From Candidatus Poribacteria bacterium (GTDB lineage: Bacteria; Poribacteria; WGA-4E; WGA-3G), in contig OY282386.1 of the NCBI GenBank assembly GCA_958295945.1, positions 2,181,864 through 2,245,863 of the forward strand: a stretch of 64,000 bases of DNA, read 5' to 3'. The notes beneath the pieces are model-generated. The model was not told the DNA's origin and searched no databases. It worked only from the letters and a program-made list of their open reading frames with translations. Shown here one piece after another: positions 43,940-50,761 of this stretch. Both the position numbers and the translations under genes were made by a program. How positions within the stretch are numbered: position 1 is the stretch's first letter; each line of letters opens with the position of its first letter.

Positions 43940-44980
43940 ATGGCAGTATCAACAATTGAATGGGAAGATGGAAGAATAAAACTAATTGATCAAACACTGT
44001 TACCAAATGAATTCAAACAGATATATTGTGATGACTTACCCACTATCTGGGAAGCGATAAAATCATTGCGTGTACGCGGGGCACCAGCTATTGGTATCGC
44101 GGGTGCTTTAGGAGCAGTCCTCGGAATATGGAATTCACAAGCTGAATCTTATGATGAGTTTGCTGCTGAACTGAAATCCGCGGTTGATTATCTTGCAACA
44201 TCAAGACCAACAGCAGTCAATCTGTTTTGGGCATTAGACAGAATCTCAAGGATAGCAGAGGAATACAAAGACCTTGCTATTTCTGATCTCAAAGGCGTTT
44301 TACTTTCAGAAGCACAGATAATTATAGAAGAGGACAAAGCAATGTGCCGTGCAATCGGTCAGCACGGGATGGCATTACTCAATGAGAACGATACGATCTT
44401 GACACATTGCAACGCGGGTGGTTTAGCAACATCCGACTATGGTACCGCCTTAGCTGTTATGTTCAGTGCACACGATGCAGGAAAGAAAATTAGTGTTTTT
44501 GCTGATGAGACCCGACCTTTATTGCAAGGTGCACGCCTTACAACATGGGAACTGATGCAGGCTGGAATTGATGTTACACTTATTTGTGATAATATGGCTG
44601 CACAGGTTATGAAAGAAGGTAAAATCCAATGCGTAATCGTTGGCGCGGATCGAATTGCTGCTAACGGTGATACTGCTAACAAGATCGGTACATACAATGT
44701 TGCCATTCTCGCAGAAGCACATGACATACCTTTTTATGTTGCCGCACCGACTTCTACATTAGATTATGCACTGGCAACTGGTGAAGAAATCCCAATTGAA
44801 CAACGTTCAGCCGATGAAGTAACAGAGGGTTTCGGTAAACTGACTGCACCAAAAGGCGTAAAAGTTTATAGTCCTGCCTTTGATGTAACACCAGCATCAT
44901 TGGTCACTGCGATTATAACTGAAAAAGGAGTAGCACGTCCACCCTACAAGGTAAGTTTACAAGCATTACAAGATACATAA
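43940..44980 (+). CDS. mtnA: S-methyl-5-thioribose-1-phosphate isomerase
   Basis: DQTLLP, VRGAPAIG, SRPTAVNL, THCNAGGLAT..GTAL, ETRPLLQGARLT, ANKIGTY, PAFDVTP. Confidence 0.97.
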   Translation: MAVSTIEWEDGRIKLIDQTLLPNEFKQIYCDDLPTIWEAIKSLRVRGAPAIGIAGALGAVLGIWNSQAESYDEFAAELKSAVDYLATSRPTAVNLFWALDRISRIAEEYKDLAISDLKGVLLSEAQIIIEEDKAMCRAIGQHGMALLNENDTILTHCNAGGLATSDYGTALAVMFSAHDAGKKISVFADETRPLLQGARLTTWELMQAGIDVTLICDNMAAQVMKEGKIQCVIVGADRIAANGDTANKIGTYNVAILAEAHDIPFYVAAPTSTLDYALATGEEIPIEQRSADEVTEGFGKLTAPKGVKVYSPAFDVTPASLVTAIITEKGVARPPYKVSLQALQDT

Positions 44981-45194
44981 TACCATTTCATCACCAAGAT
45001 AGATGTTTGTGGTAGCGCAATTCATTGCGCCTCTTACATTCACAAAACCTATCAAATCTTGTAATGAAACTTTATATCTTATACCATTTCTAATAGAAAA
45101 CTTCGCATTTTTGTAGCACAAACTTTCAGTTTGTGCTGTCCTTCAAGATATTCTTAACAAATGTTAATGGGATGAACATTTATAGAAATGGTAT
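44980..45194. repeat. Composite REP-like cluster between convergent genes
   Basis: gtagcgcaattcattgcgc 45012-45030; gtagcacaaactttcagtttgtgc 45113-45136; flanks ataccatttc (44980, 45081) and inverted tagaaatggtat (45183-45194). Confidence 0.75.
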
Positions 45195-45259
45195 TAGAAT
45201 TGATATGAGTTAAAATCTCAGAATGAAATATTCTATATTCAATATAGATAATTGGTATA

Positions 45260-46567
45260 TCAAGCAGCCTCTGCTATGTTAGACCGTGTTCCTTGTACAT
45301 CAAAACAATCATATTGATTGGTATACATAATTTGTGTGGCAAATGCCATCGCCTGTTTCTCTGTGAGATATCCATCTGCTATTTCTGCTTCAAGCGCACG
45401 TTGAATTTCATTCCGTGCTTGCAGTGAGTAAGCATAAGCACTTGTAGGCCATCCAGTGTCTCCACCAAAGGCAAATAACTTATTTGCAGGAACAGCATGA
45501 ATACATCTCCGCAGAAAATCACGAGAACTATATGGATCAATACTCCATGCCCAACAGAAGTCTATCCAGATATTACGATAATGTTTTGCAAGTGCGACTA
45601 ACTCATCATTGTAAGGATATGCAATGTGCATCAACACAAACTTGGCATCCAGATAACGAGAAAACAATTCACACATATTCCCGGCAGGTATCCGACTGAC
45701 AGGCATTCTATTATTTCCTGCGTAATAGCCGGTGTGGATTTTGAAAGGAAGGTGGTGTTCAATAGTAAGTTCCACACCACGTGCCCAACACCAATCACCA
45801 AGACATAAACGTGTAGAGGTGTCAATCTGATCTGAAGGTTTTGTTAAGATGACGTTGAGAGCGTTGGCTGCATCATCATCACTACGTTCAATCCACTTCA
45901 AGGTACGATTGTATGCATGCTGAGATTTTACTGCAATCGCACATGGTGCATGCTTGCTAAAAATAGCGTCCATACCTGTTTTCAAAGTAGCAAGGTCTTT
46001 CACTTCAATACCAGTTTCAGAATGGATAGCTTCAGGATTCACTTGACCATTACAGAAATTTGCCCAAGAAAGATCATACAAGAAAAAATCTGGTCCAGAA
46101 GTGTCTGGTGAACACTGCCAACTGAAGTCATCTGTTTGGATATGATCAAGTTTGGCAATTTCATGCAAAATATGATGACGCTTTCCCGGTTTGCGAATTG
46201 TCTTTACTTTCTCTTGTGCTTTCTCAAGGGAATCACCTGTTAACTCATCAAGGTCGTAGATGTGTTTGGCTATGAGACTAACGGCTTCACCGTAGCCAGT
46301 GAATTGTGTTGCTTGCCAAGCTTCACGTATTCCATTAAACCGAGATTTTACGTCTTTATTTGGATCCATCAAATTCTGCATCGCTTCGGCTGAAGCACCC
46401 GCTGTATGTAAGTCTGCTGGAACATAATTACCGAATAAATCCTGGAGGATATCAGGTCCGTTCTGCACCCAATCGTTTTCTCGTCGCATGTGTTCATGTG
46501 TATCAACCATACGGATAGATTGAACGTGATGTGCTAATTCTGTTCTCATGAATGTATTCCTTCCCAT
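45260..46567 (-). CDS. Amidohydrolase family protein
   Basis: VDTHEH, KIHTG, VLMHIAYP, FGGD metal-binding pattern. Confidence 0.8.
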   Translation of the reverse strand: MGRNTFMRTELAHHVQSIRMVDTHEHMRRENDWVQNGPDILQDLFGNYVPADLHTAGASAEAMQNLMDPNKDVKSRFNGIREAWQATQFTGYGEAVSLIAKHIYDLDELTGDSLEKAQEKVKTIRKPGKRHHILHEIAKLDHIQTDDFSWQCSPDTSGPDFFLYDLSWANFCNGQVNPEAIHSETGIEVKDLATLKTGMDAIFSKHAPCAIAVKSQHAYNRTLKWIERSDDDAANALNVILTKPSDQIDTSTRLCLGDWCWARGVELTIEHHLPFKIHTGYYAGNNRMPVSRIPAGNMCELFSRYLDAKFVLMHIAYPYNDELVALAKHYRNIWIDFCWAWSIDPYSSRDFLRRCIHAVPANKLFAFGGDTGWPTSAYAYSLQARNEIQRALEAEIADGYLTEKQAMAFATQIMYTNQYDCFDVQGTRSNIAEAA

Positions 46568-46951
46568 TAATCTGGATATTTTTCTCTAGTATAATTTCAT
46601 ACTTGACAAACTCACAACAATATGATTAACTATATAGAAACTATAAAAGACACATTATTTTTATTTAGATATGCTTGTTAACATTCATTGTGTTTATAGT
46701 GTCGTGAAGTCTACTTTTGATTATAGACAAATTGTAATGTTCTGTCAAAAGAAACATCTAATTCGTATGCAAAACTATTCTTACTTCTAAATATAATCGT
46801 AAACAACAATATGAATTTTTATATAGGAGATTATATCATCAGATTTTTAGTTACATTTAAGTTTATGCATGCCTTCTGCTTTAAATTCTCACCATATTTG
46901 TACATCAGTAGAGAAACTTTCATCAGCAGAAGACAAACATAGGAGCATATA

Positions 46952-47902
46952 ATGCCTACAGGTCGGATAAAATATTATAATTTAGATAAGGGATTCGGTT
47001 TCATAGCACAAGATAACAGTGAAGAAGATGTTTTCTTACACAGTTCCGCGATTAAATATGCAGATTATGAGGAACTCCGTGTCGGTCAACGCGTTAAATA
47101 TAATGTCGTTGAAGGAGATAAAGGGTTAGTCGCTAAGAATGTTGAAGTCTTGTTGACACCAACAGAAAGAAGATGGCTACGGCAAGGCAAGACAATAATC
47201 CCAAGAGGATATTCTGGATTCCAATCACAAAACCAAGACAGTATCGACAATAATACGAAGCCAATCAGTGATAATGTGGTGAATGAAAATGATGATAATC
47301 ATCCAAAACATACACCCACAGATTGGAAAAGCAGGTCTCAGAAGGAAAGATCGGATGTTCAAACGAATAGGACACCTGATGAAAAAGAACAGACTTCCAG
47401 ACAACTAAGTTTTGGTGATCTCTATATCCTCAAACAGATCAATTATGAAACACCGATGTATTTTGCAATGTACAATCATGAGCATTTGCCTGCTGTCGTC
47501 TTAGAGATGACTCTTTCTGAATTAACGCTCAATTGTAATGCGAAGGAAAGTACTATAAAAAAATCTGACATCAAGTATTGCTATAAGGATGTTGATGCAA
47601 AGAATGTAACTGCCTTACTTCAATTTAACGATGAAGTAAAAAACAAGCAGCTACAACCAATTCTGTCTAATGATGAGCAATATATTATTGATGCTGAGGC
47701 TGTCAAGAATGCGCGACATGAGGGAAATGCAATCAATATTACACTCCGTGAAGGTGAGATTTTTCAAGGAGTCGTTGATTGGATCAGTCCCTATGAAATA
47801 AAGTTAGTTTTGAATAATGGTGCTAAGATAGTTGTTTTCCTACATGCTATATGCGATTTTTCAGTTGTCAAAATGGAGGAGAAGATTGAAAACACAACCT
47901 GA
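46952..47902 (+). CDS. Cold-shock domain fused via a low-complexity linker to two Hfq/Sm-like domains
   Basis: GRIKYYNLDKGFGFI..DVFLHSSAI (RNP1/RNP2); C-terminal AINITLREGEIFQGVVDWISPYEIKL..VVFLHAICDF matches the Hfq Sm1/Sm2 pattern; AGGAG SD. Confidence 0.75.
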   Translation: MPTGRIKYYNLDKGFGFIAQDNSEEDVFLHSSAIKYADYEELRVGQRVKYNVVEGDKGLVAKNVEVLLTPTERRWLRQGKTIIPRGYSGFQSQNQDSIDNNTKPISDNVVNENDDNHPKHTPTDWKSRSQKERSDVQTNRTPDEKEQTSRQLSFGDLYILKQINYETPMYFAMYNHEHLPAVVLEMTLSELTLNCNAKESTIKKSDIKYCYKDVDAKNVTALLQFNDEVKNKQLQPILSNDEQYIIDAEAVKNARHEGNAINITLREGEIFQGVVDWISPYEIKLVLNNGAKIVVFLHAICDFSVVKMEEKIENTT

Positions 47903-48479
47903 AGAAGTCATGGCAACTTATCAACAACTCGTAGATGAGATTTCGCAAGACATAGAAAGATTGCAGGAGGAATACGGACGTGGTCCTTGTCCATCAAACT
48001 GCTTTCAATGCTGTCTTAACACATCAACGATTCCAATCAGTGAAGTTGAAGCGCGTGATTTGAAAATTGGTCTTGACGCATTACCCGAACCAATACGACA
48101 ACATATCCGTGAAAAAGCGCAGAGAACAATTGAGGTGTTAGAGAATAAAGGTTTTTCTCCAGATAAAATGGTTCAGGATGCTGGAATGAAAGCAATTGAT
48201 GTCATTAAAGGTAAATCTTTTGGTGAATGTCCTATGCTCGTAGGAGGAGTTTGTACTGTCTACGAACATCGGCCAGTAATCTGTCGTGTATGGGGATATC
48301 CCATTGATAACGGAACAGAATTGGCATGTTGTAAAAAGACCTTTATCGGTGTGCGTCGCAACTTCAAACCCATAGATTATGCGAATTATTGGAGGAGATG
48401 TAAAGAATTGAGTCTGGCACTTGGCGCAGAAGAAAAAACACCAAATTGCTATTTAGTATTAAAGTTGTTAGATGATTAG
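47886..48479 (+). CDS. YkgJ family cysteine-cluster (CxxCxxCC) protein; probable TTG start 47886
   Basis: CPSNCFQCC, CPML..CTVYEHRPVICR; GGAGGA SD before TTG, which overlaps the upstream stop. The ORF track starts at 47832. Confidence 0.85.
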   Translation: MKTQPEEVMATYQQLVDEISQDIERLQEEYGRGPCPSNCFQCCLNTSTIPISEVEARDLKIGLDALPEPIRQHIREKAQRTIEVLENKGFSPDKMVQDAGMKAIDVIKGKSFGECPMLVGGVCTVYEHRPVICRVWGYPIDNGTELACCKKTFIGVRRNFKPIDYANYWRRCKELSLALGAEEKTPNCYLVLKLLDD

Positions 48480-48514
48480 TTGATATGATTTAATGGTCTT
48501 TATACGCTAAACTC

Positions 48515-48829
48515 CTAATCGTCCATTGGATCGATGAGTTCGCGTAAAAATTTGAAAGTATAAATTCCGGTCTTGTGTCCGTCACTCCACTGAAGTTGAA
48601 TTGCGTACCTTCCAACAGGTTGAATCCCAACCAAATGCAGTTTTTCCCAATAATCATCTGTAGGTAACATTCGAAAAGGGTCATTCTGCTGCTTATCAGC
48701 ATCACACCGTGCACATGGACATTTCTCTCTGAGTAACCTATAAGGAAGTTCACTATAATGTCCATCTTTCCATTGTATTGACAAACTATGTGGTAGTCGT
48801 TTGATTTCTGTAGGTTGCATATTTTTCAT
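48515..48829 (-). CDS. DUF971 / GBBH-like N-terminal domain protein
   Basis: LSIQWKDGH..LREKCPCARC, VGRYAIQLQWSDGHKTGIY. Confidence 0.85.
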   Translation of the reverse strand: MKNMQPTEIKRLPHSLSIQWKDGHYSELPYRLLREKCPCARCDADKQQNDPFRMLPTDDYWEKLHLVGIQPVGRYAIQLQWSDGHKTGIYTFKFLRELIDPMDD

Positions 48830-48919
48830 TTTTAATCTTAATTGACTAAGAAGGTTTGTTATGATATACTAAATGAATATATAAAACTAAGGAAATAAAT
48901 GATCTTAGCTTTGAAAGTC

Positions 48920-50050
48920 TGAAGTGCCAACGGTAATTCAGACCAAAAAATCAGCAAAGTTAAGACAAGTTTTTTCGTTGAAATTCCACAGGTGTCAGAT
49001 AGTCTAACGCCGAGTGCGGGCGTTTCTGGTTGGACACCTGTGGAATAAAATGCCCAATTCGGGCTTTCGCTTCGTGGATGTCCTCGTAGTCATTGAGGTG
49101 AACTTCTTCTTCTTTGAGAGTGCGGATTAGTCTTTCAGCATATCCGTTCTCCCAAGGATGCCCTCTACGGGCAACCGAAATCTCAATCCTATGACGCTTC
49201 AACATTGACACGTAAGCATTTGAAAGATATTGAACGCCTTGATCGGAATGATGGATCTCTGGAACACTTTGACGCAATGCTGTCTCTAATGGTTTCAAAG
49301 TCAGAGATTGCGTCAAGTGCTGACTGATATGCCAAGCTCTGACCATGCGCGTGAAGACATCCATAAGCAGACAAACATAGATGAAGTGTCCCTTGAGACA
49401 GACGTAAGTAATATCGCCTACCCAGACCTGATCACATCGGGAGACCTGAAGGTTTTCAAGGCGATTCCCCCAAGGACGTACACCTTCAATGGAGTTCGTA
49501 GTTTGACAGGCACGCTTGACTGCGACTGAGAGGTTCGCAGCTTTCATCAAGCGAGCGACCACGCCTATAACCGACAGAGTATCCTTTAGACACCAGTAAC
49601 GCTGTGATACGCCTATAACCGTATGTCGGATACCGTAGAGTCTGTAGTTCTTGAACCATTTCTCGCTGCTCCATTGGAGTTAGCTCAACCAAGTCGAGGC
49701 TTTTTTTTGGATGTCAAGTGCCACGGTCAACCGCCCAACGAGTCGTTCAAGGTGTGCGATCCGTTTTTATATTGGCATCAGACTGCTTATCAGCGGGTTC
49801 AAAGAGGGTCGCTGCATTTTCAAGAAGTTGTCGCTTCCACTTTGAGAGTTGTTCATCGCTGAGGTTGTGTCTCCGACACAGTTCCGCTTGTGAACTTTCA
49901 CCCGTAAGTGCCTCAAGAACAACTTCGGCTTTAAACTCGGGAGTGAAGTTTCTTCGTTTTCGTTTCGCCATCGGATACTCCTTTCCAGTAGATGGATATT
50001 ATACCATAATCTTGTCTTAGAGAGTGGCCCGAATTTCCGATGGCAGTACA
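48920..50050 (-). mobile_element. IS3-family insertion sequence, full length but frameshifted
   Basis: Terminal IRs TGTACTGCCATCGGAAATTCGGGCCA (50050 inward) vs TGAAGTGCCAACGGTAATTCAGACCA (48920 inward), 20/26 match; orfA HTH (FTPEFKAEVV); A8 slippery tract 49701-49708; orfB DDE (WVGDITY, HHSDQG, ENGYAER). Confidence 0.9.
48960..49971 (-). pseudogene. IS3 transposase pseudogene (orfA/orfB with two extra frameshifts)
   Basis: orfA breaks near 49765 (the continuation KRIAHLERLVGRLTVALDIQKK is in another frame); orfB breaks near 49562 (GYRR / VARLMK in different frames). Confidence 0.8.
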
Positions 50051-50185
50051 CTTATTAGAATTCTAATTCCACTCAAAACATTCGCTCATATTAACCAAGC
50101 CCGGTAATTCTCGAATGTTGCGGTTTTACCCGTTATGTGCTTAAAATGGATGCAGAACACATAACTATCATTCAGGGAGGCAATC

Positions 50186-50761
50186 ATGACATCTGTTGCA
50201 GCCGAAAAATACATTTCACCTGAGGAATACCTCACTGCAGAACGCAGGGCAGAATATAAAAGCGAATACATCTACGGTGAGATATTCGCAATGTACGGGG
50301 CAAGTAACGCACATAACATTATCACAGTAGAAATTACCACTGAACTGAACATCCAATTAAGACAGCGTGGTTGCTTCGTTTACAGCGGTGATATGCGCGT
50401 TAAAACGAAGCCGACAGGTTCTTATTTCTATCCAGATGTCGTTGTTGTGTGTGATAAACCCCGTTTTGAAGATAATGTTTTCGATACCCTCTTGAACCCC
50501 ATCCTTGTCGTAGAGGTACTTTCACCATCAACTGAGGCGTTTGACAGAGGTGAAAAATTCGCACATTATCAGGAACTTGTGTCCTTGCAAGAATATATCC
50601 TTGTATCACAAGATAGGATGCGTGTTGAACACCATCGTTTGATTGAGACGCAGTGGGTAGGAAAGACGTTTGAAGCACCGGAAGATGTGCTGAAGTTCAA
50701 TTCCATTGAATGCGAATTGCCACTGCGGGATATATATACCCGCAGTTCATTTTCTGATTGA
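50186..50761 (+). CDS. Uma2 family (DUF820) putative restriction endonuclease-like protein
   Basis: EEYL..ER..EY.YGE, YPDVVVVC, LVVEVLSPSTEAFDRGEKF..YQ; AGGGAGG SD. Confidence 0.9.
   Translation: MTSVAAEKYISPEEYLTAERRAEYKSEYIYGEIFAMYGASNAHNIITVEITTELNIQLRQRGCFVYSGDMRVKTKPTGSYFYPDVVVVCDKPRFEDNVFDTLLNPILVVEVLSPSTEAFDRGEKFAHYQELVSLQEYILVSQDRMRVEHHRLIETQWVGKTFEAPEDVLKFNSIECELPLRDIYTRSSFSD

Follow-up and report, generated by a model that had tools for sequence, protein, structure and literature searches.

Hfq and the cold-shock proteins are the two textbook RNA chaperones of bacteria and are normally separate small proteins. A gene of a Candidatus Poribacteria bacterium raises the question whether both have been joined in a single chain and, if so, how such a chain would assemble and act. 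The gene occupies positions 46952–47902 of the window, that is, the whole stretch of 64,000 nucleotides that was analysed (assembly GCA_958295945.1, contig OY282386.1, positions 2,181,864 to 2,245,863 of the forward strand); all coordinates below are those of the window. An earlier note on this DNA had read the product as a cold-shock domain (CSD) and a linker followed by two Hfq/Sm-like units. We are highly confident that a CSD followed by two Hfq/Sm-like domains is the true architecture. On the larger question we lean somewhat towards a trimeric, pseudo-hexameric ring with tethered CSDs that serves as an RNA chaperone or RNA-stability factor.

Domain architecture

An orthologue search returned 437 relatives; the best 120 were inspected and 42 of them aligned. 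The protein is made up of the following parts, each given with its mean column identity among the 42 orthologues.

46952–47902, plus strand: open reading frame (ORF) of the CSD plus tandem Hfq-like protein, stop included; 316 amino acids, ATG start, TGA stop

46952–47149, plus strand: cold-shock domain, residues 1–66, from Pfam, PDB and Foldseek matches; identity 0.91

47150–47236, plus strand: conserved basic motif after the CSD, residues 67–95, LLTPTERRWLRQGKTIIPRGYSGFQSQNQ; identity 0.94, the highest of any region

47237–47395, plus strand: variable, disordered linker rich in asparagine, aspartate and glutamine (N/D/Q), residues 96–148, from alignment, composition and AlphaFold2; identity 0.31

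47396–47596, plus strand: unit 1, a diverged Hfq-like Sm domain, residues 149–215 (fold core 154–212), from predicted structure and a broad profile; identity 0.84

47597–47689, plus strand: structured connector between the units, residues 216–246, two short helices predicted, with predicted local distance difference test (pLDDT) scores of 80–91; identity 0.58

47690–47869, plus strand: unit 2, an Hfq-family Sm domain, residues 247–306, from profile, Foldseek and wider-family Pfam matches; identity 0.75

The N-terminal domain is a canonical CSD, as had been proposed. The Pfam CSD model (PF00313) matches residues 3–65 over model positions 2–64 of 66, with an E-value of 5.3e-20 and 71.5 bits against a cut-off of 27, and a search against PDB sequences finds CspA (1mjc) at E = 4.6e-13. 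Beyond exceeding the PF00313 gathering threshold, the domain carries both RNP1 (KGFGFI, residues 13–18) and RNP2 (VFLHS, residues 27–31), and AlphaFold2 models it as a five-strand OB barrel that Foldseek matches to cold-shock proteins with template modelling (TM) scores of 0.78–0.84. The CspD equivalog is among the best NCBIfam matches of the window protein, yet under its cut-off. Matches to the retron Se72 effector were set aside: they reflect generic CSD similarity, with E-values comparable to that of the CspE model, and are not evidence for a role in defence.

At the other end of the chain, unit 2 is faint when a single sequence is searched. The Pfam matches at residues 252–304 are all sub-threshold (Hfq_1, E = 0.0046; Hfq, E = 0.046; ataxin-2 Sm, E = 0.052), and a search of PDB sequences matches residues 255–301 weakly to a Methanococcus Hfq-like protein (E = 0.03). 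The resemblance to Hfq that the earlier note saw here is borne out by a profile of the orthologues, which finds the Hfq-like protein MJ1435 (5dy9/2qtx) at E = 6e-7 to 9e-7 and Caulobacter Hfq (6gwk) at E = 0.004, and which aligns F-[RQL]-H-A-I of unit 2 with Y-K-H-A-I of Hfq. In the full-length AlphaFold2 model, residues 248–306 form a helix (248–257) and five strands with pLDDT scores of 73–93, and Foldseek matches this region to Hfq chains with TM scores of 0.71–0.87. Among 94 members of the wider family described below, 40 match Pfam Hfq (best E = 1.7e-20) and 42 match TIGR02383. By sequence, unit 2 is an Hfq domain. Its Sm2-like motif reads F296-L297-H298-A299-I300, and F-R-H-A-I in most orthologues. 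Mapped onto the Hfq pocket, Y281 falls at F42, H298-A299-I300 at H57-A58-I59 and D247 at Q8; the K56 position holds R, Q or L among the orthologues, L297 being the residue in the window. The connector that precedes unit 2 contains an invariant leucine, L234, and an L.P....R..RY.I motif that is conserved in the wider family.

Is unit 1 an Sm domain at all? The region might match Hfq by chance or through an artefact of modelling, in which case only the CSD and a single Hfq-like domain would be real. No Pfam or NCBIfam library model detects this region in the window protein. A narrow profile built from Poribacteria only, with an effective number of sequences (Neff) of 1.6, found no match in the PDB and no similarity to unit 2, and the Foldseek E-values are only 4e-3 to 5e-2. 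The null result of the narrow profile follows from its low diversity, and it was resolved by including distant relatives. A profile of 59 sequences matches Hfq from Listeria at E = 2.1e-4, from S. aureus at 3.7e-3 and from B. subtilis at 0.017; 18 of its 19 PDB matches are Hfq, and the alignment to Hfq is full-length and colinear. Compared by hhalign at a Neff of 7.3, unit 1 and unit 2 align colinearly in 58 columns that reach from the helix as far as beta5 (probability 96.6%, E = 4.9e-10, score 41.7), against scores of 6.9–13.9 and probabilities of at most 5.8% in 20 column-shuffled controls.

The structural predictions speak against an artefact as well. In the full AlphaFold2 model, residues 159–212 of unit 1 form a short helix (159–162) and five strands with pLDDT scores of 75–91; modelled alone, unit 1 has a helix at positions 8–17 and five strands, with a mean pLDDT of 78. 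The top 45 Foldseek matches of the lone model in the PDB are all Hfq, with TM scores of 0.62–0.83 and a best E-value of 4.4e-3, and they include the proteins of M. jannaschii, S. aureus, Listeria, Caulobacter and Synechocystis. Several members of the wider family even retain K-H-[ND]-I in unit 1. We therefore consider a spurious unit 1 very improbable. The earlier note had called the first unit the weaker of the two Hfq fits, and this describes it well: a search with the single sequence does not see it, and a profile of diverse family members lifts its similarity to significance. The Sm fold is thus predicted in both units, each a helix and five strands for which Foldseek returns Hfq; the absence of Sm folds from these units is what the earlier note had named as refuting its reading.

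The binding pocket of unit 1 has diverged further than its fold. A family-invariant lysine (K204 in the window) aligns with K56 of Hfq, and a tyrosine conserved in the family aligns with the pocket aromatic F42. In Poribacteria another residue takes the place of the tyrosine (S189 in the window) and the histidine is gone, leaving K204 as the only pocket residue kept; the uridine pocket of unit 1 is for these reasons degenerate in this group. Other parts of the unit are invariant, namely SFGDLYILKQIN and the KYCYK of beta5. We conclude that unit 1 is a diverged Hfq copy and that the C-terminal module of two Hfq-type Sm domains arose by internal duplication. Both domains are homologous to Hfq even though they fail the curated Hfq thresholds. 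The nucleotide limits of the two units in the earlier note were right to within a few bases, and both peptide stretches that it quoted are present; its start of the second unit, 47722, is one base out of the frame register. We place the core of unit 1 at about 47411–47587 and unit 2 at 47690–47869.

The segment between the CSD and the tandem module

Between the CSD and unit 1 the earlier note had seen one N/D/Q-rich linker of about 85 residues. The description fits residues 96–148, where 34% of the residues are N/D/Q and 85% are disorder-promoting, where AlphaFold2 gives pLDDT scores of 25–37, and where the length differs between orthologues. It does not fit residues 67–95: this basic segment, LLTPTERRWLRQGKTIIPRGYSGF, directly follows the CSD and is only 17% N/D/Q. 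The supposed single linker is therefore a conserved motif followed by the true linker, since the column identity is 0.94 in the former and 0.31 in the latter. The basic segment has low pLDDT scores and a short predicted helix at residues 70–77. We know of no counterpart to this peptide, which may serve for docking, either on the ring or on a partner. A related motif, LT(P)xE..LRQGK..IPR, recurs in three distant CSD-bearing members of the family (P0121, P0128 and P0130).

Conservation and the wider family

The best 120 of the 437 relatives are full-length proteins of 250–325 residues, nearly all of 300–325, and are 56–100% identical to the window protein; for the full-length orthologues in Candidatus Poribacteria the range is 56–85%. 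The named orthologues are labelled 'cold shock domain-containing protein [Candidatus Poribacteria bacterium]', and many carry precomputed PF00313 and PF21979 assignments. A genome scan with the Poribacteria alignment found 14 Poribacteria loci and one unclassified relative, the other matches being ordinary cold-shock genes, mostly from Actinobacteria. Every retrieved Poribacteria locus has a full-length orthologue. Together with the conservation of the folded parts, this argues that the whole architecture is under selection.

Is the arrangement peculiar to Poribacteria? An exhaustive HMMER search with residues 147–316 (E up to 1e-3) recovered a family with the tandem module that numbers at least 151 clusters (50% identity), the majority from uncultured bacteria. 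In 92 of the best 150 clusters the alignment is contiguous across both units and covers nearly the whole module. The signature of the module is an uninterrupted stretch of about 160 residues that runs from unit 1 through the connector to unit 2 and carries Y..KQ, K..IKY.YK, L.P....R, G(E)..G and FRHA; the window protein fits it. A profile search gave 690 proteins, including many stand-alone forms of 190–200 residues in metagenome-assembled genomes of Desulfobacterota/Thermodesulfobacteriota, which NCBI names 'hypothetical protein' and IMG names automatically 'sRNA-binding regulator protein Hfq'. No member of the family reaches a curated NCBIfam cut-off. The family is unannotated because neither Pfam nor NCBIfam sees unit 1, and the names 'cold shock domain-containing protein' and 'hypothetical protein' could be improved by a family definition.

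Within the 92 full-module clusters the module lies at or near the C-terminus of proteins of 146–558 residues. It stands alone in forms of about 170–200 residues, follows basic low-complexity tails, which often open with 'VWTPxxD', or follows a CSD; in one protein (P0132) two CSDs precede it. By Pfam, 15 of the 94 members have a CSD, and in a neighbour-joining tree of the module, which is rough and has long branches, these members are spread over at least four separate clades. The distribution suggests that the association of CSD and module is ancient or has arisen repeatedly. Rather than being unique, the CSD fusion forms one branch within a larger family of tandem-Hfq proteins. Other fusions occur: an XRE-type helix-turn-helix (HTH) domain lies C-terminal to the module in 4 of the 94 members, S1 is occasionally fused, one member has an HU domain and one has sigma-70 region 4. 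The four HTH proteins (P0123, P0124, P0125 and P0131) form a sub-branch, and two of them consist of CSD, tandem Hfq and HTH. By its domain content this sub-branch links the module to DNA-binding regulators.

Many members outside Poribacteria (P0124, P0125, P0133, P0135, P0137, P0139, P0149, P0152 and P0153) carry a '(T/Q)(L)VW(T/R)PxxD' motif at the start of the protein or after the CSD, followed by a long basic low-complexity stretch. As judged from its sequence, the motif may be a short linear docking motif.

Assembly and function

Taken together, the sequence and the models predict that the gene encodes a modular nucleic-acid-binding protein, composed of a CSD, a basic peptide, a disordered tether and a rigid module of two Sm domains. 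How would such a module assemble? Bona fide Hfq and Sm proteins are described in review as cyclic oligomers, in which beta4 of one subunit pairs with beta5 of the next. Both units of the protein retain complete edge strands in the AlphaFold2 model and are linked by the conserved, predictedly ordered connector, and the tandem module would close into an Sm ring by the same beta4–beta5 edge pairing. In the most economical form, which the earlier note had proposed and which we find plausible, three chains would make a ring of six barrels, with the canonical sites of unit 2 alternating with the degenerate sites of unit 1; by analogy, PNPase would be a precedent for this ring logic. The ring would hold U-rich single-stranded RNA, and three CSDs on disordered tethers of about 50 residues would capture neighbouring RNA and keep it unfolded. 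The protein would act in this way as a combined RNA chaperone or RNA-stability factor.

The two Sm barrels of a chain could instead pack only on one another, as a pseudo-dimer that the connector holds together and that resembles tandem Tudor or KOW domains, to give a non-ring platform that is a monomer or a dimer. The connector, which is conserved and predicted to be ordered, is what one would expect of such a body, as is the loss of the canonical pocket residues from unit 1, and tandem small beta-barrels commonly form fixed two-barrel bodies without rings, according to review. Several features are harder to reconcile with it. Both units keep the full topology of a helix and five strands with free beta4 and beta5 edges, every bona fide Hfq or Sm protein covered by review assembles into a cyclic oligomer, and the KYCYK of beta5 in unit 1 is invariant, as expected of an interface. 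We regard the non-ring arrangement as unlikely, though it deserves to be taken seriously.

A second alternative concerns the ligand of the protein rather than its shape. The protein might be directed at DNA, as a nucleoid-associated factor or one linked to transcription or replication, for which CspD and the DNA binding of Hfq offer parallels. E. coli Hfq binds DNA, CSDs bind single-stranded DNA besides RNA, and the CspD equivalog is, as noted, among the best sub-cut-off NCBIfam matches; the four family members with a C-terminal HTH and the two with HU or sigma-70 region 4 point in the same direction. Against this, the window protein and its Poribacteria orthologues are without an HTH or any other domain that binds double-stranded DNA, and CSD, S1 and Hfq make up a classic RNA-binding set. 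A DNA-directed role is in our judgement decidedly unlikely. That the module is repeatedly fused to nucleic-acid-binding domains (CSD, S1, XRE-type HTH and HU) supports the RNA-chaperone ring.

Several points weigh against the RNA-chaperone ring. Its oligomeric state, RNA binding and chaperone activity are inferred, and the DNA-binding HTH of some family members fits a DNA-related role as well. The pocket of unit 1 appears degenerate. That of unit 2 is not fully canonical, because its K56 equivalent is leucine in the window (L297) and its Q8 equivalent is the nearly invariant aspartate D247. The window protein scores below the curated Hfq cut-offs, with 13.8 bits against 27 for PF17209, 17.5 against 27 for PF21979 and 13.9 against 61.7 for TIGR02383; a further curated cut-off, of 52 bits, is not reached either. 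The AlphaFold2 models were built on shallow alignments of 27–42 sequences, and the Foldseek E-values of unit 1 are modest (4e-3). Finally, at the two loci outside Poribacteria that were compared, the genomic context is not conserved and offers no link to RNA metabolism.

If the ring is carried one step further, the protein would be a single-chain 'two-in-one' Hfq that serves as a general RNA chaperone in Poribacteria and in scattered, mostly uncultured lineages. Its trimeric pseudo-hexamer would be asymmetric, with three canonical and three re-purposed faces; in Poribacteria the ring would be tethered to three RNA-melting CSDs, and the peptide after the CSD would be autoregulatory or dock a partner. 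We put this forward tentatively and consider it doubtful as a whole. If true, it would add to the RNA chaperones of bacteria a class not recognised before, in which the two best-known types are united. A real CSD-Hfq ring would be a naturally asymmetric Sm ring in which the roles of the Hfq faces could be dissected, a task that otherwise needs engineered heteromers, and a test case for the question whether chaperone kinetics change once an annealing ring has a melting domain tethered to it. The protein is also a candidate global post-transcriptional regulator for Poribacteria, which are sponge symbionts with no genetics, and for the other uncultured lineages that bear the module.

Leader and genomic neighbourhood

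What surrounds the gene, and is the surrounding conserved? The elements nearest to it are as follows.

46941–46945, plus strand: ribosome-binding site AGGAG, 6 nucleotides 5' of the ATG, read directly

47910–48479, plus strand: gene of a CxxCxxCC (PF03692, YkgJ-like) metal-binding protein, Pfam E = 1.5e-4, 22.8 bits against a cut-off of 23

48515–48829, minus strand: convergent gene of a GBBH-like_N (DUF971) protein, Pfam E = 2.9e-25

The sequence AGGAGCA...ATG is invariant across 10 Poribacteria loci. Upstream of the start codon lies an intergenic region of 384 nucleotides (46568–46951). On its minus strand, at 46748–46720, is a perfect TTGACA-17-TATAAT that is kept in other Poribacteria loci and probably serves the divergent amidohydrolase gene as its promoter. 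On the plus strand a conserved element, TTGACA...TA(A/C)TAT, lies near 46603–46640; read as a promoter, it would leave the CSD-Hfq mRNA with a leader of some 300 nucleotides, reminiscent of cspA-type mRNAs. Rfam finds no RNA family in 44000–50000 at E up to 1, and hence no match to a cspA-type thermosensor. Structure prediction for the leader gives two small hairpins and pairing of the Shine-Dalgarno sequence with the start region, and we dropped leader structure as a claim, the consensus energy of -3.95 kcal/mol being too weak.

Downstream, the CxxCxxCC gene starts 7 nucleotides past the CSD-Hfq stop codon in the window, and it lies 14–42 nucleotides downstream on the same strand at 13 of 13 close Poribacteria loci. 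Given the 7-nucleotide gap and the lack of a terminator-like site between the two genes in the window, they are probably co-transcribed, and the CSD-Hfq protein is probably co-expressed with the CxxCxxCC metal-binding protein. An alternative TTG start of the CxxCxxCC ORF at 47832 would overlap the CSD-Hfq gene by 71 nucleotides; we take the ATG at 47910 as the true start because it is conserved in the 13 loci. All 13 loci likewise have the GBBH-like_N/DUF971 gene, which is convergent and directly adjacent at 10 of them and displaced by 0.5–4 kb at the other 3. On the upstream side, most loci have a divergent amidohydrolase gene, a gene of the MtnA-like IF-2B family and one for a thiamine pyrophosphate (TPP) enzyme.

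Two divergent homologues have the full CSD plus tandem architecture without the CxxCxxCC and DUF971 neighbours: one from Poribacteria at 44% identity (L014, OZ246960.1) and one from an unclassified bacterium at 30% identity (L015, CAZHVH010000041.1). They may be divergent orthologues or paralogues. At two loci of stand-alone members of the Desulfobacterota type, we found no neighbours common to each other or to the window.

Beyond the conserved block, 48960–50051 holds an integrase-core ORF of the insertion sequence (IS) type (rve/rve_3, 200 amino acids, GTG start) and short overlapping ORFs; in sequence it looks like the remnant of an IS3-family transposase. A Uma2-family endonuclease gene follows at 50186–50761.

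Comparison with known systems

Has such a protein been described? The earlier note knew of no description of the architecture, and our search agrees: the literature, searched for fusions of CSD and Hfq, for tandem domains of the Hfq or Sm type and for Hfq in Poribacteria, yielded nothing on the CSD-tandem-Hfq protein or its family, and the databases offer only the generic names given above. N-terminal, C-terminal and middle Sm fusions as well as tandem Tudor, OB and SH3 barrels are listed in two broad reviews of architectures built on Sm domains and small beta-barrels; they contain neither an OB(CSD)-Sm-Sm arrangement nor a tandem Hfq. The sole paper that mentions both Poribacteria and Hfq concerns Borrelia BB0268/FlgV, a flagellar protein with two transmembrane segments that was once mis-annotated as Hfq and is unrelated to the soluble tandem-Hfq family.

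With the cold-shock proteins CspA, CspE and CspD (PF00313), the likeness is confined to the N-terminal 66 residues, a standard CSD with RNP1 and RNP2, which Foldseek aligns with CspA at 47% identity. The classical cold-shock proteins of bacteria consist of one domain of about 70 residues, whereas here the CSD heads a multidomain chain of 316 residues and is followed by a conserved basic extension. With Hfq (PF17209, TIGR02383; 1kq1, 4nl2 and 6gwk, and the archaeal MJ1435, 2qtx/5dy9), both units share the Sm fold of a helix and five strands, and unit 2 appears to share in addition a motif of the Sm2 type, [FY]-[KR]-H-A-I, as well as an aromatic residue in the pocket; nearly everything that the profile and structure searches return is Hfq. 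The differences are that Hfq has one domain per chain and this protein two, that a CSD is fused to them, that the pocket of unit 1 is degenerate, that aspartate replaces Q8 and that the scores stay below the cut-offs.

More than one Hfq repeat per chain is not without parallel. Sun, Zhulin and Wartell are said to have reported a tandem-repeat Hfq in Novosphingobium aromaticivorans in 2002, which we take, from the length of the model, to be the protein behind NF010691/PRK14091, a 176-position 'RNA chaperone Hfq' model. The repeats would allow a trimeric pseudo-hexamer there too. That family has no CSD, and unit 1 of the present protein is much more diverged. The window protein does not match NF010691 at E up to 10; members of the tandem family align to it with unit 2 only, at model positions of about 22–90, and their best score is 22.7 bits where the cut-off is 270, so that the duplication appears to be independent.

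Residues 197–292 of the window protein also match positions 100–198 of the LIC_13076 family of Leptospira (NF047624, 214 amino acids) at E = 3.4e-5. The match, which runs from the end of unit 1 through the connector into unit 2, scores 23.8 bits against a cut-off of 110, so the protein is not a member. LIC_13076 also matches, weakly and colinearly, the connector and unit 2 of Desulfobacterota-type members. Judging by these alignments, LIC_13076 may represent another branch of the tandem-Hfq family, one in spirochaetes; the sole paper that names it is a vaccine screen and gives no function.

For the assembly proposed here, the closest comparison is with PNPase, in which each chain carries tandem ring-forming RNase PH domains and three chains build a pseudo-hexameric, RNA-binding ring of six domains, with S1 and KH domains tethered on top. 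The fold of the RNase PH ring is unrelated to that of the Sm domains, and the analogy is limited to the logic of assembly.

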